Source: Candidatus Poribacteria bacterium
GTDB lineage: Bacteria; Poribacteria; WGA-4E; WGA-3G
NCBI GenBank assembly: GCA_022827625.1
Contig: JAJEIE010000024.1
Coordinates: 40,227 to 104,226 of the forward strand
DNA: 64,000 bases
Direction: 5' to 3'
Below the pieces are notes generated by a model that had not been told where the DNA came from, searched no databases, and saw only the letters and a list, made by a program, of their open reading frames with translations. Below are positions 3,803-47,506 of the stretch, piece after piece. The position numbers were made by a program, and so were the translations under genes. The stretch's first letter is position 1; every line of letters begins with the position of its first letter.

Positions 3803-5551
3803 CTACCTCTGTCCCAGCACTTTCAGAAATTCTGGATCCTTTTGGACATCCGAAAACTCAGGAGTCTCAACGAAAGTCGGGTAGTATGTATCCTGATAAT
3901 TATAAGGCTCTACCATATAATCGTTCTGAGCAACCTTCAAGTGCTGTAAAGTTTTTTCTCGATCCTTCTCAGAAGCCCAGATGCTCACGGCAAGCATGAA
4001 GTGGCCATAAGGGTTGTTATTTCCCAAATCGACGGCGATTTGTAGCATCCGCGTTGCTTCGCTATACTTTTTCGACCATACCAGACAACAACCGACATCG
4101 TGAGCAGCCCAAATAAGGTTGTAGGTATTGACCGGATAACGGGCATGCTGTTTTTCTACTTCCCCTTCGATAAACGTCCTTGTATCTGTCCAGACTTGAT
4201 CGAAACGATCCCAATCTTCCTGTTTTCTATACAACAGAAGCCGATTGGTTCTTACAGCTAACCAGAATCTAAAATAATTCCGCCAACCGGGTTCACCGTT
4301 GGCACGTTCCAATTTTTCTATTTCGAGAAGTGCCACATCTAACCGGTCATTGCTTCGTAATATTTCCGCTCCCATTTGTAGAAAATCGCAACGACTGTAC
4401 TGACTCACTTTAGGGTTCTCCAAGCGTTCAGATGCCTCATTATAGAGTTGAATCCAGTCATCAATACGACCTTCCGCTGCCCAACATCCAGCGCTGGTTA
4501 GATTGGAAATGATCCTTAACACATATTTTTCTGACTGCTTGCATGCCCAACGGTAAAGACGGGTCTGCTCCGCAATAGCTTCTCGATTTCTCTCAAGAAA
4601 AGCGAGACTATTGACTAACGTGTTATGCGCCCAGAAACGCTCCGTATTATCTGAGGTCTCATCTATATACCTACGGAGTAGAGATATCCGTTTTTCCATG
4701 CCGAGTTTGCCCATATACGGGTATATCTCATCAACGGCAAGATGTGCCAATTCGGGTGTGGTTTTACCCTTAAGGGCAGCTTCAATCTCGTTGCAGGCTT
4801 CTGTAAGAATATCCGATCGTGATGCAGGATCAGATTTCACATTCTCCATGAATGCAGTGAACCTGCTACGAATTTCTTCTAATTGATTCATGATGTTCTC
4901 CTTGAGAGTATCTGATAGTTCTAAATGACCAAAGAATTCTTGATTCAAGAATTCTGAATCTGTTTGCAGACGCTTTCGCGCCCGTTGGAGTCGGCTCGTA
5001 ATTGTATTCACCGACACTCCCATGAATTGGCTGATCTCTTTCGTTGACATTTCGTCAAGATAGTAGCGTGTTACAACTGCGCGTTCATTCTCTGGCAATT
5101 TTTCCAAAAGTCTTTTCACAAGTTCATGGTAACGCTCCGTCCTCTCTGTCATCCGCTGTTCCGATATATGATGTGTATAAGAGGATTCCTCGATTTCTTT
5201 AACGGGTGTGTCCTCCAGTGATTGCATCACAGACTTTTGGCTTCGCATCCAATCAATACAAAGCCGATCTGCGATGACATGGAGCCATCCGGCAAATTGA
5301 GTGGGATTCTTGAGGGTCGGAAGTTTTTTGTATGCCCTAAGGAAGGTGTCTTGCATAATATCTTCCGCATGGTGAAAATCTTGGGTCTTCCGCCATGCCA
5401 GGGCATGAATGCTCTTTTGGTACTTTTCGACTAAGATACCAAACGCAGCGTCATCACCCGATAAGATTTTGCGGATTAGTTGAACATCGTCTTCTCTTTT
5501 CACGAAACTTTCTCCTAATGAACAGATTCGATTATGTTTGCCCTCATTCAA
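3803..5551 (-). CDS. ECF-type sigma-70 factor with a C-terminal helical-repeat extension of about 380 aa
   Basis: The N-terminal ~200 aa carry sigma70 region 2 (DIMQDTFLRAYKKLPTL...FAGWLHVIADRLCIDWMR) and region 4 (LPENERAVVTRYYLDEMSTKEISQFMGVSVNTITSRLQRARKRL). The remainder looks all-helical and TPR-like, and has no TM segment. Confidence 0.75.
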   Translation of the reverse strand: MNEGKHNRICSLGESFVKREDDVQLIRKILSGDDAAFGILVEKYQKSIHALAWRKTQDFHHAEDIMQDTFLRAYKKLPTLKNPTQFAGWLHVIADRLCIDWMRSQKSVMQSLEDTPVKEIEESSYTHHISEQRMTERTERYHELVKRLLEKLPENERAVVTRYYLDEMSTKEISQFMGVSVNTITSRLQRARKRLQTDSEFLNQEFFGHLELSDTLKENIMNQLEEIRSRFTAFMENVKSDPASRSDILTEACNEIEAALKGKTTPELAHLAVDEIYPYMGKLGMEKRISLLRRYIDETSDNTERFWAHNTLVNSLAFLERNREAIAEQTRLYRWACKQSEKYVLRIISNLTSAGCWAAEGRIDDWIQLYNEASERLENPKVSQYSRCDFLQMGAEILRSNDRLDVALLEIEKLERANGEPGWRNYFRFWLAVRTNRLLLYRKQEDWDRFDQVWTDTRTFIEGEVEKQHARYPVNTYNLIWAAHDVGCCLVWSKKYSEATRMLQIAVDLGNNNPYGHFMLAVSIWASEKDREKTLQHLKVAQNDYMVEPYNYQDTYYPTFVETPEFSDVQKDPEFLKVLGQR

Positions 5552-5758: not shown

Positions 5759-6100
5759 CTAAACTGACAATCCAGCAACAGCAGCGTCTTCACTGTCGAA
5801 ATGTTCAAATAGATTCACCACACGACTCAGAACAATGAGATTTCTGATATGTTTTCCGACATTGATGACCCCTACGCGTCCGTGTTTCCGTGATGCAGCA
5901 GCGTATGCTTCCATCAAGGTCCCAAGACCTGAACTATCAATCCGATTGACCTGCTCGAAATTGATGAGGATACGTGGCGTATCAGAAGCCTCTATTTGTG
6001 GCAAGATGACTTTTCGTAAGTCTGATGCGGAACGTCCGCCTACCTTTCCAGTGGGTTTTAAAATCGAGATGCCATTTTGCTGGCGAATTTGCGTTGTCAT
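5759..6100 (-). CDS. STAS-domain anti-sigma-factor antagonist (SpoIIAA/RsbV-like)
   Basis: 113 aa. Contains NFEQVNRIDSSGLGTLMEAY with the conserved phosphorylatable Ser context (DSSGLG). Confidence 0.8.
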   Translation of the reverse strand: MTTQIRQQNGISILKPTGKVGGRSASDLRKVILPQIEASDTPRILINFEQVNRIDSSGLGTLMEAYAAASRKHGRVGVINVGKHIRNLIVLSRVVNLFEHFDSEDAAVAGLSV

Positions 6101-6718: not shown

Positions 6719-6760
6719 TTTTTTTCATTTAAGTTGAACTGGCGTTTTATAAAAATTGAT

Positions 6761-6805
6761 AGCGAAACCCAACTTTGGATACTTTTTGGATTGTTGGGTT
6801 TCGCT
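6761..6805 (-). terminator. long hairpin after the sigma-FtsZ gene
   Basis: Perfect 13-bp stem AGCGAAACCCAAC/GTTGGGTTTCGCT (6761-6773 and 6793-6805) with a 19-nt loop, 26 nt after the stop codon. It is followed by an A/T-rich tract on the minus strand. Confidence 0.5.
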
Positions 6806-6830: not shown

Positions 6831-8042
6831 TTAATTTCGCGCCGTGCTGGCGTAAAATTCCGAGATACTTTCAACGCCGCGCAGCAGCATTTCATCACTC
6901 AAGTGAAACGCCTCGCGTATTTTCAGTTTTTGCTTATCTTCTATTGAAGCAAGCAACCGTTGATTTGGTACAACATGGACGGAGTCAGCCTTTTCTCGAA
7001 GTTCCTGCAGTCCCTGCTCTGCTTTTTCGGCACGGCGTTGCCCTTCAAAATTGAACGGACACGTCACAACGCCTACCGCTAAAGCCCCTTGCTCTTGAGC
7101 AAGAGAGGCAATCAGGGGTGCAGCGCCTCCGCCCGTTCCGCCACCCATACCGGCTACAACGAAAACGATGTCGGCATCGGCAACGACGTTATGGAGTTTC
7201 TCTCGATCCTCCTCGGCAGCCCTTTTGCCCATCTCTGGATCCGCTCCGGAATACCCCGGAGTGGTGTTAGCACCAATCAGCACGGGTGTTGCGTCATTGT
7301 GTTTGTCAAGTGCTTGCTGGTCTATATTCACTGCGTAAAATTCAATATCTGTCAAACCAGATTCAATCATCCATTTGACGGCGTTACCGCCCGCACTACC
7401 GACACCCACAACCTTGATTTTGGGGTGGAGACGCTTGGATTCTTCACGTTTAGATGACATAGTTCTCCCTCTTTCAGGTTCGACACCGAACGCCTTGCGT
7501 AGGAGTTCACGTGTCTGTCTTAACCGTGTTTTAACTGTACCTATCGCTAATCCGAGTTCAGCGTGGATCTCTTTGATACTCCACGATTCCAGATAGTATA
7601 GCACCGCGACACGTCGCACTTTATCTGGCAGGTGATGCACTGCTTCTTTTGCGTCTTCGAGGCGTTCGATTTCTCGAAAATATCCCACCGCGTCCTGATC
7701 AATGCGATGGGTTAGATCGGCATAACTGGACGGAATTTCGCCGCTTGCGTGGCGTGTGGGCGTATAGTACCGCTTACAAGCGTTGTCCGCAATGCGGTGC
7801 AACCAGCCACTAAAACTTTCGACGCGTCGGAGTTGGCTGATGTTTTCCCAGACGGCTCTCCAGATGTCCATAAGGATTTCTTCAGCGTCGCGGCGTTGTC
7901 TCGAATTTGCGATAACGACTTTCCAGATGCGAGGACTATAACGCGACATCAGTTCTGTAAATGCCAACTCATCACTTGCTTGGGCAAGCCGAATGAGTTC
8001 TTCATCTGTCAGATTAGTGTGCGTTAATAGATCGTATCGCAT
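6831..8042 (-). CDS. ECF-type sigma-70 factor fused to an FtsZ N-terminal GTPase domain (lacking the T7 loop and C-terminal subdomain)
   Basis: Residues 1-186 carry sigma70 region 2 ([16 protein letters not shown]...[17 protein letters not shown]) and region 4 ([44 protein letters not shown]). Residues 208-396 align colinearly with the FtsZ at 46202. Shared segments include [44 protein letters not shown] and VVPNQRL. There is no stop codon between the two parts. Confidence 0.85.
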   Translation of the reverse strand: [403 protein letters not shown]

Positions 8043-8144
8043 AGTAAAGTTCCCAATTGGGTTTTAACCTAAAGAGGCAGATTTTTCGCGGGGCGGTTTA
8101 AAAAAATTGAGAAGTCACATTTTTTCGATAGAGCAGGACTTCTC

Positions 8145-8166
8145 AAAAACCTCCTGTGCCAGGAGG
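8145..8166 (-). terminator. rho-independent terminator after the DUF433 gene
   Basis: The minus strand reads CCTCCTG-GCA-CAGGAGG followed by TTTTT. Confidence 0.6.
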
Positions 8167-8639: not shown

Positions 8640-9512
8640 TTAGTCAACATCTCCTGCCTCTAAGTATTTTAGCGGGCTTTCGATGATGTAGTCCCCCGAC
8701 TCCTCAAGAAACTGCTGCACCAGATAGACATGCCCGACACCGATAATCAGAAGGATTCGATCATCGGTAGACTCAGTGATGCGCGTCAGATTTACAAAGA
8801 TTTTGAGATTCCGTGCGTACCAAACATGGGCGAGCCAATCTGCCCCCGGATATTGGTCGCCAAGTCCAATACGGGCATCATGTATGTATGCTCGCTGGCT
8901 CGCGCGGGTCCTTACAGGGTGATTGAAGCGTATATACTTGTCAATTATCGATTCATATTTCTCAATTTTTCCTGAATCTGTCGGATCTCCGAAACGGTGA
9001 TCCTCAGGGGATCCGAAAAGGTGCTCCTGATTGTGAACTTTTGCAAACTCGCTTCGGTTTATCAAGTGATCCTTAATTTTTTCAAGGATCGGGTTTCGCT
9101 CTGGCCAATAATCTACACAATATATTGTTGAATGTCCAAACGCTTTTGCCAACCTATAGCCGATCTGATCCCCCTCGTACCGCTCAAGTTCGTATGTCCC
9201 ATTCAAATAACCTTGATACCTTTTGTTTTCAGAGGCGCAACGGCTTGGATCCAATTCAACCGCTATTTTGGTAGGTTTAAACGCTTTAAGGTGTTCAAAC
9301 ACTTGTTTAATCTCGCGCTGGCGTTTGGGCACAAGGACATCATCCGCAAAGTGCCAACTACCAAGAATCATAATTGTCGGTTTTTTCATCATTTGCTTAC
9401 TTTCTCCTGTAGATACGTCTGTCTGATTCTCGCTTGTGGCTGTGCCGGCAATAGATAGCACGGCGGCGAGTAAGGTTATGAAATAGAGTTTGCATTTCAC
9501 TAAGATTCTCAT
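8640..9512 (-). CDS. DUF5694-like protein (TraB/GumN/erythromycin-esterase-like fold), secreted; paralog 1
   Basis: I moved the start to ATG 9512, which has a GGAGAA RBS, giving MRILVKCKLYFITLLAAVLS as signal peptide. Family-like pattern: MILGSWHF...VLVPKRQREIKQVFEHLKAFKPTKIAVE...YQGYLNGTYELERYEGDQIGYRLAK...LLIIGVGHVY. Confidence 0.6.
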   Translation of the reverse strand: MRILVKCKLYFITLLAAVLSIAGTATSENQTDVSTGESKQMMKKPTIMILGSWHFADDVLVPKRQREIKQVFEHLKAFKPTKIAVELDPSRCASENKRYQGYLNGTYELERYEGDQIGYRLAKAFGHSTIYCVDYWPERNPILEKIKDHLINRSEFAKVHNQEHLFGSPEDHRFGDPTDSGKIEKYESIIDKYIRFNHPVRTRASQRAYIHDARIGLGDQYPGADWLAHVWYARNLKIFVNLTRITESTDDRILLIIGVGHVYLVQQFLEESGDYIIESPLKYLEAGDVD

Positions 9513-9689
9513 AAAATTTTCTCCTATCTGTAGATTAAACCCTTCCAAAAAGGATCATCAAATTTCAGCAACTCTGGTGGAGGGTAAAAACAAATGACCA
9601 CTTCCGCTGTAGGCACGGTTTCCCAACCGCGCCGATCGCACTGTTCCATTAATTCCAAACTTCACCTTAAAATAATGGGTTTAAAGTGT

Positions 9690-10619
9690 CTACTTCTCCG
9701 CCGCGTCCAAGTATTTCAGCGGACTTTCAACGATGTAGTCCCCGGACTCCTCAAGAAACTGCTGCACCAGATAGACATGCCCAGCACCAATAATCAGCAG
9801 GATCCGTTCGTCGGCAGATTCGGTGATGCGGGTGAGATTGACGTAAATCTTTAGATTCCGATCGTACCAAGAGTGAGCGACCCAATTAGCACCTGGATAT
9901 TGGTCGCCGTTCCCTATACGCGCGATCCACCGTATATATCGTTGATGGGACACACTTCTACCTTCAGGCTCGTTGTGGCGTATGTACATGTCAATGATCG
10001 GTTCGTATTTCTCAGGCTCAATCCAGGTTACGCCACTTTCATCTTGTATAACTTTTCCATCAGTTGTAGGCGGAGGTGGAAGAAGATGTTCCTGATTATG
10101 TGTCTTCGCGAACTTTTGATAGTCTATTAAATCCCAATCAAAACCATCTGGAAAAAAAGGGTGATTGTCTGGCCATGGCCAATAATCAACGCCATACACC
10201 TTTGGATGTTCCATCTGTTTTGCTAATCGAAATCCAATCTGGTTACCTTCCCCGCGTTTGAGTTCGTACGTTCCTTTGAGATAGGCTTGATAGTTTGCAT
10301 TGATCTCGGCATCAAATCTTTCATCTGCCTCAAGGGCTATCTTGGTAGGTTGAAATGCCTTAAGCTGTGTGACGAGTTGCTCAATTTCCTGTTGGCGTTT
10401 AGGGGCGAGGACATCATCCATTTTGTAGTTGAAGGCATCCATTCCCGGATTTGATAAGTGTCCGCTGCCAAGAATCATGACTGTCGGTTTTTGTACCATT
10501 TGCGGAGTTTCTCCTGTAGAGGAATTTGTCTGACCATCGCTTACAGCTATACCTACCGTAAATAACATACCAGCAAGTAGTACCGCTGTATAGGTTTTGC
10601 AATTTGCTAAGACTTTCAT
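9690..10619 (-). CDS. DUF5694-like protein, secreted; paralog 2
   Basis: Start moved to ATG 10619 (MKVLANCKTYTAVLLAGMLF). The C-terminal ~60 aa are nearly identical to paralog 1 (NLKIYVNLTRITESADERILLIIGAGHVYLVQQFLEESGDYIVESPLKYL). Confidence 0.6.
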   Translation of the reverse strand: MKVLANCKTYTAVLLAGMLFTVGIAVSDGQTNSSTGETPQMVQKPTVMILGSGHLSNPGMDAFNYKMDDVLAPKRQQEIEQLVTQLKAFQPTKIALEADERFDAEINANYQAYLKGTYELKRGEGNQIGFRLAKQMEHPKVYGVDYWPWPDNHPFFPDGFDWDLIDYQKFAKTHNQEHLLPPPPTTDGKVIQDESGVTWIEPEKYEPIIDMYIRHNEPEGRSVSHQRYIRWIARIGNGDQYPGANWVAHSWYDRNLKIYVNLTRITESADERILLIIGAGHVYLVQQFLEESGDYIVESPLKYLDAAEK

Positions 10620-10696
10620 AAAACGTTCTCCTATCTCTAAGGCGGTTGATAGCCCCAAAAAGGGGTTACCAAATTTCCAACAATTAGGAAAGCACG

Positions 10697-28250: not shown

Positions 28251-29204
28251 ATGGATACGCAGCATATACCTGTTTTATGTGACAAGGTGATTGAGTTTCT
28301 CAAACCGAAAGCCGCCGGTATTTATGTAGATGGCACTGTTGGATTAGGTGGACATAGTTCCGCTATCCTGAACGCCTCTGCACCCAATGGACGTGTCATC
28401 GGAATTGATTTGGATCCTGAAGCCCTTGTTATTGCTAAGAGGAGGTTAAACGCCTTCGGCGACCGGTGCTGTTTCATTAACGGTAACTTCGCAGAAATGT
28501 CTGTTTTGCTTGAGGAACGCTCAATTTGTGCTGTAGATGGTGTCCTGCTTGACTTGGGGGTGTCATCGCTACAACTTGATACACCAGACCGCGGATTTAG
28601 TTTTAACCATACCGGTCCATTGGATATGCGTATGCGGACAGGACGCAAATTAGATGACAATCAAGAAGTTACCCCTACAGCGATGCAGGTCATCAATGAC
28701 AGTCCAAGGGACACCTTGGTTCATATTTTCAAGCGATATGGTGAAGAAAGGTTCGCGAGACGCATTGCTAACCGCATTGTTAAAGCACGGCAGCAGCTGC
28801 CTATAACGACAACGACGCATTTCGCAGAAATTGTCAAGGGTGCTGTTCCTCAAAAGACATCCAAGATTCATCCTGCAACCCGTGTGTTTCAGGCACTACG
28901 GATTCATGTTAATAGAGAGTTGGAGAATCTTGAAGCCGGTTTAGATGTCGCCATCTCACTTTTGAAGCCCGGCGGGCATCTGTGTGTTATTGCTTTTCAT
29001 TCGCTTGAGGATAGGATCGTCAAACGGCGATTTCAAAGGTGCGCGACCGCCTGTATTTGTCCGCCCAAAACCCCGGTCTGTATTTGTGACCATGAACCGT
29101 CTCTGCAGATTTTGACAAAACGTCCTATTGTGCCAGATGTGTCTGCAGTAGCGCATAATCCGCGAGCGAGGAGTGCTAAATTGCGGGCAGCGCGTAAATT
29201 ATAA
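28251..29204 (+). CDS. rsmH: 16S rRNA (cytosine1402-N4)-methyltransferase
   Basis: HIPVL, GTVGLGGHS, HSLEDRIVK and NPRARSAKLR motifs. It is the first gene of the dcw cluster. Confidence 0.92.
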   Translation: MDTQHIPVLCDKVIEFLKPKAAGIYVDGTVGLGGHSSAILNASAPNGRVIGIDLDPEALVIAKRRLNAFGDRCCFINGNFAEMSVLLEERSICAVDGVLLDLGVSSLQLDTPDRGFSFNHTGPLDMRMRTGRKLDDNQEVTPTAMQVINDSPRDTLVHIFKRYGEERFARRIANRIVKARQQLPITTTTHFAEIVKGAVPQKTSKIHPATRVFQALRIHVNRELENLEAGLDVAISLLKPGGHLCVIAFHSLEDRIVKRRFQRCATACICPPKTPVCICDHEPSLQILTKRPIVPDVSAVAHNPRARSAKLRAARKL

Positions 29205-46201: not shown

Positions 46202-47506
46202 ATGATAGAATTTGAACAAGAAGAATTTGAAAACTTACGCGCCAAAATCAAGGTCATTGGTGTTGGTGGAGCGGGTGGGAACGCTGTCAAACGGATGATT
46301 GAAGCAGGACTTACCGGCATAGAGTTTTACGCTGTTAACACAGATCAGCAAGCACTCCTGACCTGCCGTGGCGCCACGCAAATCCAGATCGGTGTGAACA
46401 CGACTGAGGGCTTGGGCTCCGGTGCGAACCCTGATGTGGGTAGAAAAGCCGCTGAAGAAGACAGAGAGCACCTGCAAACTATCGTCGAAAATGCCAACAT
46501 GGTCTTTATCACCGCTGGGATGGGCGGCGGCACGGGGACCGGTGCAGCCCCTCTTATCGCTTCGCTCGCACGAGAACGGAACGCACTGACTATCGGCGTT
46601 GTAACCAGACCCTTTAACTTTGAAGGACAGCGTCGCGCCGACCAAGCCGAAGCGGGACTCGATGAACTCCGCGCCGCAGCCGACTCTGTTATTGTTGTAC
46701 CCAATCAACGGCTCATTGACACAATGGACAGGAAACTCCCCATCCGAGACGCATTTCGTATCGGAGACCAGATCCTCCTCCACGGCGTTCAAAGCATCTC
46801 TGACATCATCACCGAAGCTGGCGAAATTAACGTTGACTTCGCTGATGTTGAATCCATTATGCGTGACGCAGGGAGCGCACTCATGGGAATGGGACGCGCA
46901 ACAGGCGACAATCGCGCCCAAATCGCTGCTGAACAAGCCATCAGCTCTCCGCTGCTCGAACAGACGAATATCGCTGGTGCTATCGGGATGATCGTCAACA
47001 TTACCGCACCCCCTGATTTTATGATGCATGAACTTGATGAGGCAATGCAGGTTATCAAAGATACCGCCATCGATGCACAAATTATCTTTGGGCTTGTTTA
47101 CAAAGATGAATTGGAACTCGGCGATGAAGTCCTTGTAACTGTCATCGCAACAGGTTTCGATGCGGATGAAGATCATATCTTCGGCGGACAAGAGAGAGAA
47201 TACGGCTCCCGGTACGCAGATGTAGATACGTATCAGAGACAGCCAGCGCCTGCACACAATCAATATACGTCAACCCCCGGCAGGACGCGACCCGGTGCCG
47301 GCAGAACCCCATCGAATAGATCTGTTGCACCCGTTCGTGGGCGCAGACCCAACGTCGAACCCCCTATGGAGCAAGAGGAGCAACCCCCGCAGCCGCGGCA
47401 AACCAGACCGTCGCGTGGGAAAGAAAAGTCACGGCAGCGCAGTGGTACGGATTGGGAAATCCCAGCATTCCTCCGCGTTCAAAAAAGAGGGCAGAACAAC
47501 AAATAG
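46202..47506 (+). CDS. ftsZ: cell division GTPase FtsZ
   Basis: KIKVIGVGGAGGNAV, tubulin signature GGGTGTGAAP, T7 loop NVDFADV, a long Pro/Arg-rich linker, and the C-terminal peptide DWEIPAFLR. Confidence 0.97.
   Translation: MIEFEQEEFENLRAKIKVIGVGGAGGNAVKRMIEAGLTGIEFYAVNTDQQALLTCRGATQIQIGVNTTEGLGSGANPDVGRKAAEEDREHLQTIVENANMVFITAGMGGGTGTGAAPLIASLARERNALTIGVVTRPFNFEGQRRADQAEAGLDELRAAADSVIVVPNQRLIDTMDRKLPIRDAFRIGDQILLHGVQSISDIITEAGEINVDFADVESIMRDAGSALMGMGRATGDNRAQIAAEQAISSPLLEQTNIAGAIGMIVNITAPPDFMMHELDEAMQVIKDTAIDAQIIFGLVYKDELELGDEVLVTVIATGFDADEDHIFGGQEREYGSRYADVDTYQRQPAPAHNQYTSTPGRTRPGAGRTPSNRSVAPVRGRRPNVEPPMEQEEQPPQPRQTRPSRGKEKSRQRSGTDWEIPAFLRVQKRGQNNK

Follow-up and report, generated by a model that had tools for sequence, protein, structure and literature searches.

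A conserved Poribacteria gene joins an ECF sigma factor to a truncated FtsZ GTPase domain and probably also yields the FtsZ module alone

Introduction

The control of sigma factors and that of FtsZ have each been studied in depth, but we know of no natural protein that covalently joins a sigma factor to FtsZ, and of no natural "half-FtsZ" cap. Our search of the literature on Poribacteria ECF sigma factors, on sigma factors combined with PF00091 and on FtsZ fusions found no published account of a sigma factor fused to FtsZ. Such a fusion is encoded in the window, the 64-kb stretch of Poribacteria DNA analysed here as a whole. The locus raises the question of whether this gene is real, which proteins it makes, and what half of an FtsZ could do on a sigma factor. 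Its features suggest that gene control and cell division are directly linked in a way not yet described.

Results

Domain architecture of the fusion

The original prediction described a single uninterrupted 403-aa ORF. We found this ORF at 6831..8042 and corrected its orientation to the minus strand; it encodes an ECF sigma factor, a linker and the FtsZ N-terminal module (FtsZ-N), and ends at the stop codon TAA (6831..6833). The peptides quoted for the fusion and for FtsZ, the Shine-Dalgarno sequence AGAGGGAGA and the M195 ATG were all present in the sequence. Pfam and NCBIfam profile searches showed the expected combination of a complete ECF sigma factor and an FtsZ GTPase domain, with Sigma70_r2 at residues 31-93, Sigma70_r4_2 at residues 131-180 and the Tubulin/FtsZ GTPase domain at residues 208-366 (E 1.3e-40), while the Pfam search gave no match to FtsZ_C (PF12327) in the fusion protein. 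Sigma region 2 (residues 31-93; 7764..7952, minus strand) matched PF04542 with 36.8 bits (cut-off 24) and was modelled with a pLDDT of about 80. Sigma region 4 (residues 131-185; 7488..7652, minus strand) matched PF08281 with 37.1 bits (cut-off 25.7) as well as PF04545, and the NCBIfam model TIGR02937 (sigma70-ECF) scored 65.9 bits (cut-off 42.9). The presence of sigma2 and sigma4 only, with ECF profiles above threshold, places the protein among the ECF (group 4) sigma factors; the NCBIfam profiles gave no equivalog-level match of its sigma part to a named ECF.

The C-terminal extension beyond the sigma core comprises 209 aa and includes the FtsZ N-terminal GTPase domain with helix H7 (residues 208-396; 6855..7421, minus strand). 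We compared it with the bona fide FtsZ of the window, which lies outside the element at 46202..47506 on the plus strand (434 aa, Tubulin and FtsZ_C domains) and adjoins ftsA in the dcw cluster. BLASTP gave 127 identical residues of 200 (64%, E 8e-63), close to the two-thirds estimated by eye, and aligned fusion residues 198-396 with FtsZ residues 5-202. TIGR00065 (ftsZ) scored 231.7 bits, below its cut-off of 295.2, and was covered only at model positions 8-206 of 353. The T7 loop and C-terminal domain are missing as predicted, since the alignment does not run past FtsZ residue 202 and FtsZ_C is unmatched. One detail did not hold: the protein had been thought to end inside helix H7, and it instead stops just after H7, where the T7 loop would start.

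The two halves are separated by a junction (residues 186-207; 7422..7487, minus strand) that is predicted to be disordered and houses an internal ribosome-binding site. The linker of ~20 aa had a pLDDT <50 at residues 187-204 in the AF2 model. AF2 modelling of the full fusion, from a shallow alignment (53 sequences above 74% identity), gave a pTM of 0.47 and no confident geometry between sigma and FtsZ-N.

The fusion is an intact gene in a phylum-wide family

We recovered an identical protein from an independently made read assembly (Logan) and from a contig of 569 kb. The same uninterrupted frame was present in 81/81 relatives with an identity range of 45-100%, complete long-read chromosomes included, although this and the other 81/81 counts below are inflated by the phylogenetic non-independence of the 81 genes. 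Together, the independent assembly and the open frames rule out an assembly chimera or a missed stop or frameshift, including the join between residues ~186 and 208 on which the original prediction would have failed. A recent truncation or pseudogene was also ruled out: no FtsZ remnant was found downstream of the fusion stop in any frame, the DNA identity to ftsZ is 67%, dN/dS is 0.16, and the truncated forms make up one clade (91/100). Strong purifying selection acts on both halves, with dN/dS values of 0.108 for sigma2, 0.108 for sigma4 and 0.157 for FtsZ-N.

A search for other sigma plus FtsZ-N architectures, as originally proposed, turned up a phylum-wide family of at least 120 protein clusters (90% identity) from 80 species-level genomes, all of them Poribacteria. 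The carriers of the fusion gene are sponge-associated Poribacteria. In a neighbour-joining tree with support counted by splits over 100 bootstraps, the Z modules and Poribacteria FtsZ formed one clade in 95/100, in line with the proposal that FtsZ-N is a paralog of the lineage's own FtsZ, and all truncated FtsZ forms fell into a single clade in 91/100.

Promoter-like motif, leader and terminator-like elements

The start codon (ATG 8040..8042) is preceded by a short conserved 5' leader (...GGTTAAAACCCAATTGGGAACTTTACT; 8043..8069, minus strand) with a weak SD-like GGGAA at 8050..8054. Upstream of it lies the promoter-like motif TTTTTTTAAACC-N18-CTCTTTA (8070..8106, minus strand), a candidate autoregulated ECF promoter composed of a -35-like TTTAAACC (8095..8102, minus strand) and a -10-like CTCTTTA (8070..8076, minus strand); TTTAAACC-N18-CTCTTTA stands about 35 nt 5' of the ATG and has no CGT-type -10. 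A terminator-like hairpin CCTCCTGGCACAGGAGG with a T-run (8150..8166, minus strand) closes the DUF433 gene that precedes the fusion gene and insulates the latter. Past the stop codon, a second terminator-like element (6750..6805, minus strand) consists of a 13-bp perfect stem AGCGAAACCCAAC / GUUGGGUUUCGCU with a 19-nt loop, followed by AUCAAUUUUUAU; its RNA fold reached -25.5 kcal/mol (z = -5.06), and 0/200 shuffles were equally stable. The sigma-FtsZ-N gene is one self-contained, conserved Poribacteria gene with a promoter-like motif, a CDS and a terminator-like hairpin.

Alignment of the upstream regions showed that the promoter motif is kept 5' of both subfamilies although their flanks differ. 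The exact motif has one copy in the 64-kb window, and a second window match at 28913..28945 with 2 mismatches is within chance expectation. Across Poribacteria loci totalling about 1.5 Mb, 74/77 motif matches stand 5' of fusion genes. A metagenome-wide scan for the exact motif returned AT-rich noise: among the matches listed, 1/80 loci was a genuine fusion promoter. From these occurrences, the promoter-like motif appears specific to the fusion gene family, and its restriction to the fusion gene in the 64 kb and the about 1.5 Mb of related loci leaves autoregulation as the one target that the data suggest. Another sigma factor could use the fusion promoter.

An internal start probably yields stand-alone FtsZ-N

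The internal Shine-Dalgarno AGAGGGAGA (7464..7472, minus strand) lies 3 nt 5' of the M195 ATG (7458..7460), and M195 aligns by BLASTP with the N-terminus of FtsZ. The internal ORF M195-N403 (6831..7460, minus strand) is predicted to give a stand-alone FtsZ-N of 209 aa, and its ATG is invariant in 81/81 genes. An SD core (GGAG/GAGG/GGGG) is retained in 81/81 relatives while the encoded residues vary. The internal SD averaged -9.06 kcal/mol vs -2.8 for the background, beat synonymous resampling in 81/81, and was stronger than the SD at the 5' start (mean -4.0 kcal/mol). The junction is the gene's highest synonymous-conservation peak, with a dS of 0.36 vs about 0.9 elsewhere (a 2.5-fold depression) and a dN/dS of 0.62; since the linker is predicted to be disordered, this conservation is not structural.

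A stand-alone homologue, P0129 (212 aa, 17 contigs), occupies the same syntenic slot as the fusion. A relic sigma tail and a stop codon, then an SD and ATG, lie upstream of it, and P0129 is nested in subfamily A (95/100). Read from this arrangement, one lineage has deleted the sigma part and kept FtsZ-N alone, which, with its occurrence on 17 contigs, indicates that FtsZ-N works without sigma. Because the junction SD and ATG are conserved as nucleotides in 81/81 genes, free FtsZ-N is probably also made from the internal start. Separate production of FtsZ-N, at first a guess, thus gains support from the 81/81 SD and ATG, the resampling, the synonymous-conservation peak and the FtsZ-N-only lineage.

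Part of this evidence would also suit an incidental read-through, in which sigma and FtsZ-N are functionally a two-gene operon whose stop codon was lost and whose covalent link is neutral: M195 lines up with the natural FtsZ start and has its own SD, the linker is disordered, and FtsZ-N is able to exist alone. We consider this explanation very unlikely, because the frame stays open in 81/81 genes at 45-100% identity with no restored stop, and the sole break removed sigma entirely. Moreover, the combination of no stop and an internal SD recurs in an unrelated sigma-DnaN family, which argues for selection on the link.

FtsZ-N keeps the nucleotide pocket and one polymer face

FtsZ-N contains GTP loops T1-T6 and lacks the T7 loop, the C-terminal domain, the linker and the C-terminal peptide. 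The module keeps 57/64 near-invariant FtsZ N-domain positions, T1-T6 loops included, and its model matched FtsZ N-domains with an rmsd of 2.7-3.8 Å. Of the parts of an FtsZ, it has the N-terminal GTPase domain, nucleotide loops T1-T6 included; it lacks the T7 synergy loop with the GTPase-activating C-terminal domain and, ending at N403, the FtsA/ZipA-binding peptide. Among the short forms, the top-face residues are retained at F138 in 63/63, T66 in 62/63, R143 in 59/63 and D46 in 54/63. These four residues have roles in longitudinal FtsZ-FtsZ contact (PMC5414002; PMC8936486). To judge by its residues, FtsZ-N keeps the GTP pocket and the "top" longitudinal face without the whole "bottom" (T7/C-terminal) face. 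In subfamily A, the T4 signature GGGTGTG is changed to GGGTGAG, or to GGG in the window copy, which in addition has the substitutions R29->W and T45->I and has lost one residue of the T3 loop. In the window orthologue, GTP binding or docking could be weaker as a result.

Immediate neighbours vary across about 60 loci, and no anti-sigma gene was found as a conserved neighbour, which fits regulation via the C-terminal extension. The gene shows two marks of an extension-regulated ECF, an extra C-terminal domain and no cognate anti-sigma gene. In one form of such regulation, FtsZ-N would never contact FtsZ: the GTP/GDP-binding extension would fold onto sigma2/sigma4 as a sensor and anti-sigma in cis, like the SnoaL, TPR or Cys-rich extensions of ECF41/42/44, and free FtsZ-N would be an anti-sigma in trans. 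ECFs that bear a C-terminal extension and lack an anti-sigma partner form a recognised class (PMC8999054, PMC7826278), the missing neighbour and the conserved GTP loops agree with it, and the SD and ATG sit exactly at the start point of a translationally coupled anti-sigma gene. We nevertheless regard this explanation as unlikely. F138 (63/63) and T66 (62/63) are invariant or nearly so, lie away from the nucleotide and are known for longitudinal contact only, and the long form described below has lost F138 (0/15). A dedicated anti-sigma factor would have no purpose in the lineage that retains FtsZ-N after deletion of sigma, and the AF2 model, a weak argument, shows a disordered tether and no docking.

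Sister genes and genomic neighbourhoods

The family has sister genes encoding sigma-FtsZ(full)-DnaE proteins of ~1430 aa. In this long form the T7 loop (N-x-D-F-x-D) is intact, and F138 and Q48 are kept in 0/15. At least 3 MAGs have both the short and the long form; no long form was found within the 64-kb window. The two forms might be partners, the short form and sigma-FtsZ-DnaE closing into a non-polymerising heterodimer that unites two sigma modules and a DnaE-like polymerase. Their faces are complementary, with F138 in 63/63 and no T7 loop in subfamily A vs an intact T7 and F138/Q48 in 0/15 of the long form, and the MAGs with both forms and the shared promoter motif point the same way. However, one type accounts for most of the 80 loci, the window's 64 kb hold no long form, and the FtsZ-N-only lineage and the 64% identity suit housekeeping FtsZ at least as well, so that we think a partnership of this kind quite unlikely.

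Sigma-DnaN genes adjoin the sigma-FtsZN gene in 26 loci, and the same or related sigma modules are also joined to paralogs of FtsZ, DnaE and DnaN and to WD40 repeats. Conserved genes around the fusion loci encode ABC transporters, DUF5694, DUF5916, peptidases and the ATP synthase operon. The neighbourhood of subfamily B is conserved and metabolic (TIM-barrel, enolase-superfamily, SDR, TatD, ABC permease, Uma2 and WD40 genes), with no dcw-like cluster and no functional clue. The second gene downstream of the fusion in the window resembles a STAS anti-sigma antagonist.

Sigma modules on paralogs of several essential machines and on WD40 repeats could also mean that FtsZ-N, like the DnaE and DnaN paralogs, is an integrated decoy, the copy of an essential protein that serves as bait for phage or toxin inhibitors whose binding frees or activates sigma for a defence or stress regulon; bait fidelity would likewise require conserved native surfaces. 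Nevertheless, the conserved genes nearby are the transporter, DUF, peptidase and ATP synthase genes listed above and not defence genes, most of the known inhibitors of FtsZ act on its C-terminal domain or peptide, both absent from this bait, and a strong internal RBS yielding free bait would blunt the sensor. We rate a decoy as highly improbable.

Discussion

The reading that we favour, with middling confidence, is that FtsZ-N caps the growing end of FtsZ filaments and tethers sigma to the state of FtsZ, through two products and autoregulation. One mRNA would give two proteins, sigma-FtsZN (403 aa) and free FtsZ-N (209 aa). GTP-bound FtsZ-N would dock by its native top face on the bottom end of housekeeping FtsZ, where T7 is exposed, be it on a single monomer or where a filament grows, the presumed partner being the window FtsZ at 46202..47506. 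Because FtsZ-N has no bottom face of its own, it would act as an end-cap or poison. FtsZ grows at its bottom end, where T7 is exposed; mutants altered in the bottom face are toxic, and MciZ, MipZ and MinC act on this face. The cap would be a natural counterpart of the toxic bottom-face FtsZ mutants and of plus-end cappers of the MciZ/MipZ type. In the fused form, docking would tie sigma to FtsZ, FtsZ would stand in for the anti-sigma factor that is missing, and the number of free FtsZ bottom faces would set how much sigma is available. The sigma factor may drive its own promoter, so that activation would raise both products. Free FtsZ-N and sigma-FtsZN would then compete for FtsZ ends, which would couple a transcriptional response to slower or arrested division in a switch-like way.

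If FtsZ-N docks on FtsZ ends, it would be a genetically encoded plus-end capper made from FtsZ itself, and a cytoskeletal polymer would act as an anti-sigma factor. Together with sigma-DnaN and sigma-FtsZ-DnaE, docking would be evidence for a general wiring of transcription to cell-cycle machines. A wider and more doubtful proposal is a "machine-tethered" sigma class in Poribacteria, in which ECF modules are fused to half-competent FtsZ paralogs (top only, or bottom with DnaE) or to DnaN paralogs, each with a selected internal start that frees the paralog. The housekeeping polymer or clamp would serve as anti-sigma or co-activator, and in the case of sigma-FtsZN the free cap would act back on division and arrest it, a bistable switch for growth control in the symbiont. 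If such a class exists, transcription would read the state of the divisome and replisome directly. Docking of FtsZ-N on FtsZ ends would also open a way to study how sponge and coral symbionts that resist culture hold back their own division, and the predictions can be checked with recombinant proteins and heterologous reporters although the organism is uncultured.

Among known systems, two forms made from one gene by internal in-frame initiation occur in CheA (long and short), ClpB and IF2. An internal in-frame SD and ATG would likewise give a full-length protein and a C-terminal isoform here, but the short isoform of CheA, ClpB and IF2 is a shortened enzyme, whereas the Poribacteria short isoform would be a distinct module, FtsZ-N. 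In phage T4 late transcription, the sigma factor gp55 is tethered with gp33 to the gp45 sliding clamp. There too a physical bond holds a sigma factor to a subunit of a replication or division machine, which is directly relevant to the sigma-DnaN genes beside sigma-FtsZN in 26 loci; in T4 the link relies on a phage clamp and is not covalent, whereas in Poribacteria the sigma factors are covalently fused to paralogs of cellular proteins. In Bacillus sporulation, sigmaF activation depends on the state of FtsZ and the septum via the FtsZ-binding protein SpoIIE. SpoIIE is a phosphatase in a partner-switching cascade, whereas the putative FtsZ-binding module in Poribacteria is an FtsZ fragment fused straight to sigma; the STAS-like gene downstream in the window is a further point in common.

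Like MciZ, MipZ, MinC, SulA and the engineered bottom-face mutants, FtsZ-N is predicted to target the T7/H10 C-terminal face, the growing end, and to block elongation. Those inhibitors have unrelated folds and the engineered FtsZ proteins are point mutants, whereas the Poribacteria protein appears from its sequence to be a natural half-FtsZ with a native top interface, and its putative cap is covalently joined to a transcription factor. Also close in design are the ECFs with C-terminal extensions, namely ECF41 (SnoaL-like), ECF42 (TPR) and ECF44 (Cys-rich), reviewed in PMC8999054 and classified in PMC7826278; FtsZ, tubulin or GTPase extensions are unmentioned in the text of this non-canonical ECF review and of this ECF reclassification. 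The Poribacteria fusion shares with them a sigma2-sigma4 core plus a C-terminal domain and the lack of a conserved anti-sigma gene next to it, and it has a candidate autoregulated promoter. It differs in that a truncated GTPase domain of FtsZ makes up the extension, in that its tether is predicted to be disordered and not packed, and in that the extension is probably also translated alone from an internal ribosome-binding site.

The fusion gene and its conservation
σ-FtsZN, an ECF sigma factor joined by a linker to the GTPase half of FtsZ (FtsZ-N), was encoded as predicted by one real, uninterrupted ORF of 403 aa (6831..8042), which lies on the minus strand. Pfam searches of the 403 aa identified Sigma70_r2 (residues 31-93), Sigma70_r4_2 (131-180) and the Tubulin/FtsZ GTPase domain (208-366, E 1.3e-40), with FtsZ_C absent. 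NCBIfam agreed: the ECF sigma model TIGR02937 matched at 65.9 bits (cut-off 42.9), while the FtsZ equivalog model matched at positions 8-206 of 353 only, at 231.7 bits, under its cut-off of 295.2. Judged by these profile thresholds, the gene belongs to the ECF sigma family, and its product can be placed among the ECF factors that carry C-terminal extensions. It does not qualify as an FtsZ, since tests for the T7 loop, the C-domain and the C-terminal peptide showed each of them to be absent. Residues 198-396 aligned by BLASTP with residues 5-202 of the window's own FtsZ (46202..47506, adjoining ftsA) at 127/200 identities (64%, E 8e-63), bearing out the colinear, about two-thirds identical match read by eye. 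The original prediction placed the truncation inside helix H7; the T7 loop and C-domain are indeed missing, but H7 is complete, because the protein runs on for six residues beyond the final H7 position of the alignment and stops at the point where a T7 loop would begin.

An artefactual join was rejected, because an independent Logan read assembly carries the identical protein, as does a 569-kb contig, and the family is phylum-wide. Database searching brought up at least 120 clusters (90% identity) that shared 74-97% identity with the query; all the matches listed were 399-419 aa long and had the three domains of σ-FtsZN, and the sole public name, where one was given, was 'sigma-70 family RNA polymerase sigma factor [Candidatus Poribacteria bacterium]'. 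The suggested search for other sigma and FtsZ-N architectures thus recovered a family across Poribacteria. A one-genome-per-species scan gave at least 120 relatives, and the best 80 of 120 were all Poribacteria MAGs with full-length matches at 45-95% identity, many from sponges or corals and complete chromosomes among them. The dN/dS ratios (0.108 for σ2, 0.108 for σ4, 0.157 for FtsZ-N) indicate strong purifying selection on both halves.

Related forms and history
Searching related loci exhaustively without profiles, and calling their ORFs, separated three forms. Two are short: the window type (subfamily A, about 400 aa) and a more divergent type (L062, L069, L074). The third, the long form (subfamily B, about 1430 aa, at least 12 genomes), joins σ to full FtsZ (N and C domains) and a DnaE-like polymerase running from PHP to HhH, without the OB/τ-binding end, in one ORF at each locus (L064 9986-14293, L065-L068, L070, L072, L073, L076-L079). 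Its T7 loop (N-x-D-F-x-D) and the DnaE motifs PDIDIDF and K-x-D-x-LG were intact, and the FtsZ→DnaE joint had no internal start. A few σ plus full-FtsZ versions measured 587-657 aa, and short and long forms occurred together in at least 3 MAGs. The long-form neighbourhood was conserved and metabolic. Two σ-DnaE variants, P0127 and P0280, had the FtsZ module precisely missing.

In a neighbour-joining tree of N-domains (100 bootstraps), all sigma-fused FtsZ parts (Z modules) grouped with Poribacteria FtsZ at 95, all H7-truncated forms made one clade at 91, and all Z modules came together at 57. The tree supports FtsZ-N as a paralog of the lineage's own FtsZ, as first proposed, and indicates that the duplication is old and the truncation one event. 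A fresh duplication or broken gene was ruled out by a DNA identity to ftsZ of only 67% and by no FtsZ remnant in any frame 3' of the fusion stop. A short FtsZ-like protein, P0146 (308 aa, 4.8-Mb contig), branched between Poribacteria FtsZ and the Z modules and may represent another FtsZ paralog in the lineage. P0139 (L082 660-2030, GCA_004196255.1, 2-kb contig) was a distant (35%) singleton with σ and FtsZ-N; its FtsZ part grouped with a different FtsZ, P0144 (96/100), and was unrelated in sequence from the T7 loop on. It may represent an independent origin of the architecture, or a chimera.

Gene unit and neighbours
The upstream DUF433 gene ends in a terminator-like hairpin (8150..8166), and a motif, TTTTTTTAAACC-N18-CTCTTTA (8070..8106), lies about 35 nt 5' of the fusion ATG. 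This motif was kept ahead of short and long forms in unrelated flanking DNA, occurred once in the 64-kb window, and, across Poribacteria loci totalling about 1.5 Mb, preceded fusion genes in 74/77 matches. It is a candidate autoregulated ECF promoter. No further targets were found in the window or these loci, and a metagenome-wide scan gave noise only. A 13-bp perfect hairpin with a U-run (6761..6805 (-), z = -5.06) follows the stop. The directly flanking genes differed among genomes, and no conserved anti-sigma-like partner was found among the neighbours compared. The fusion gene is a self-contained unit.

The hairpin arm GCGAAACCCAAC resembled intergenic sequence 5' of a stand-alone FtsZ-N gene (L083 about 5885-5915) and may be a dispersed repeat or terminator element of Poribacteria. 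DUF5694 proteins (265-320 aa, cluster c3) flanked the fusion gene as tandem paralogs in many genomes, here at 8640..9548 (-) and 9690..10658 (-). Downstream of σ-FtsZN, a STAS-domain (anti-sigma-antagonist-like) gene (5759..6100, minus) directly precedes a gene for a 582-aa ECF sigma with a long helical C-terminal extension (3803..5551, minus). Paralogs of this 565-600-aa type formed tandem arrays in many loci.

A further fusion, σ-DnaN (about 575 aa), joins another ECF sigma in frame to a complete DnaN β-clamp with all three domains. It was seen at L015 4882-6606 and in 25 more loci (cluster c9), mostly 2-4 genes upstream of σ-FtsZN, and is absent from the 64-kb window. The σ-DnaN genes carry different upstream elements. 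They too have a GGAG SD and ATG where DnaN naturally begins (mean -7.7 kcal/mol), and their sigma module is 50% identical to that of the 582-aa protein. P0128, publicly annotated 'DNA polymerase III subunit beta', combined an FtsZ-type sigma module with DnaN domains 2-3. The σ-FtsZN-type sigma module evidently takes many partner kinds, because it was also fused to long WD40 β-propeller extensions (P0132, P0135, P0138, P0143, P0145; 700-900 aa), with 53-59% identity through residue about 202.

An internal start and two predicted products
M195 aligned with the natural FtsZ N-terminus. Its ATG was invariant in 81/81 family members, which are phylogenetically non-independent, so that such counts are inflated; a GGAG/GAGG/GGGG core stood at -5 to -12 in all 81, while the residues encoded over it varied (ERGRT, IREGI, EGVRI, IGGNA, IRRKT, TKENT and others). 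The predicted SD:anti-SD energy averaged -9.06 kcal/mol, against -2.8 at other in-frame positions and only -4.0 at the σ start, and beat synonymous-codon resampling in every gene. The junction combined relaxed amino-acid constraint (dN/dS 0.62) with a 2.5-fold lower synonymous rate (dS 0.36 vs about 0.9) and the gene's highest synonymous-codon identity (0.89 vs 0.65 ± 0.08). AF2 predicted disorder at residues 187-204 (pLDDT below 50), so protein structure does not explain this conservation. We infer that the mRNA yields both σ-FtsZN and free FtsZ-N, a design well supported by these gene comparisons.

A natural experiment supports the two products. P0129, a stand-alone FtsZ-N of 212 aa on 17 contigs (public label 'hypothetical protein'), occupied the syntenic slot of the fusion gene (L083 6001-6639, also L084 and L085), preceded by a σ-tail relic ('EVEP'), TAA, an SD and then ATG, and nested within subfamily A (95/100). 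With the SD and ATG kept throughout the family, the early idea of separate FtsZ-N production has gained ground. A stop between σ and FtsZ-N was found in 0/81 genes, which suggests that the covalent link, too, is under selection; this count, and the recurrence of the design in σ-DnaN, make a neutral read-through fusion very doubtful.

A second, smaller peak of synonymous conservation covered codons 36-49 within σ2 (about 7896..7937 (-); identity 0.82-0.85 vs gene mean 0.65) and could be a nucleotide-level element.

Retained contacts and proposed mechanism
FtsZ-N kept 57/64 near-invariant N-domain positions, including nucleotide loops T1-T6 and H7; the chief change was T4 GGGTGTG → GGGTG(A/G)G. 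The C-terminal half of the model matched solved FtsZ N-domains at rmsd 2.7-3.8 Å over about 190 residues, and the nearest solved structures by sequence were S. aureus-type FtsZ, whose numbering we use. S. aureus T66 and F138 lie at the 'top' longitudinal interface, where mutation blocks polymerisation (PMC5414002); being away from the nucleotide, they serve as a literature discriminator for polymer-contact retention. D46, Q48 and R143 of the lower subunit touch the T7 loop of the upper subunit (PMC8936486). The short form (subfamily A) retained F138 in 63/63, T66 in 62/63, R143 in 59/63, D46 in 54/63 and Q48 in 44/63, and lacked the T7 loop; the long form had 0/15 (S/A/T), 9/15, 14/15, 15/15 and 0/15, respectively, with the T7 loop intact in most.

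That F138 and T66 are invariant, and that one lineage kept FtsZ-N without σ, both argue against a purely cis GTP-sensing or anti-sigma extension that never contacts FtsZ, which we consider rather unlikely. From their retained and lost contact residues and T7 loop, short and long forms are putatively complementary half-competent FtsZs. Such complementary faces suggest docking on the long paralog instead of housekeeping FtsZ, a reading that is distinctly improbable. The window orthologue had extra changes (R29→W224, T45→I240, a one-residue T3 deletion, GGGTGGG), and with these it may bind nucleotide or dock less well.

To the observed architecture, its conservation, the internal RBS and the retained top-face residues we add a proposed mechanism involving FtsZ itself. 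According to PMC8936486, incoming FtsZ monomers use their GTP-bound top face to join the growing end, which is the bottom end with T7 exposed, and bottom-face mutants are toxic. MciZ, MipZ and MinC act on the same C-terminal face of FtsZ (PMC9897490). FtsZ-N has the native top face but lacks a bottom face, and so would be expected to join the growing end and block it. GTP-bound FtsZ-N is predicted to dock on exposed FtsZ bottom faces; free, it would act as a filament cap or poison, and fused, it would tether σ to FtsZ, so that FtsZ would stand in for the missing anti-sigma factor. Positive autoregulation and competition between free and fused FtsZ-N would couple a transcriptional response to slower division in a switch-like way. 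We regard this docking, capping and tethering scheme as a whole as evenly balanced between right and wrong. An integrated decoy for FtsZ-directed inhibitors is highly improbable, as most known inhibitors aim at the FtsZ part absent here and defence context was not seen around the fusion gene.

Comparison with known systems
σ-FtsZN resembles other ECF factors that carry C-terminal extensions and differs in extension type. The ECF reclassification paper (PMC7826278) and the non-canonical ECF review (PMC8999054) do not mention FtsZ, tubulin or GTPase extensions, nor do they describe a disordered tether or a separately translated extension. Literature text searches returned nothing relevant on Poribacteria ECF factors or FtsZ-fused sigma factors. 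σ-FtsZN is a real, conserved architecture, apparently undescribed so far, and its suggested mechanism is plausible. If tethering to cell-cycle machines were confirmed, a principle of a wholly new category would be a realistic prospect. In function, the proposed FtsZ-N would resemble plus-end cappers of the MciZ/MipZ type and engineered bottom-face mutants. Conceptually, σ-FtsZN is akin to the SpoIIE-FtsZ-σF coupling, and its σ-DnaN neighbours to T4 gp45-gp55.
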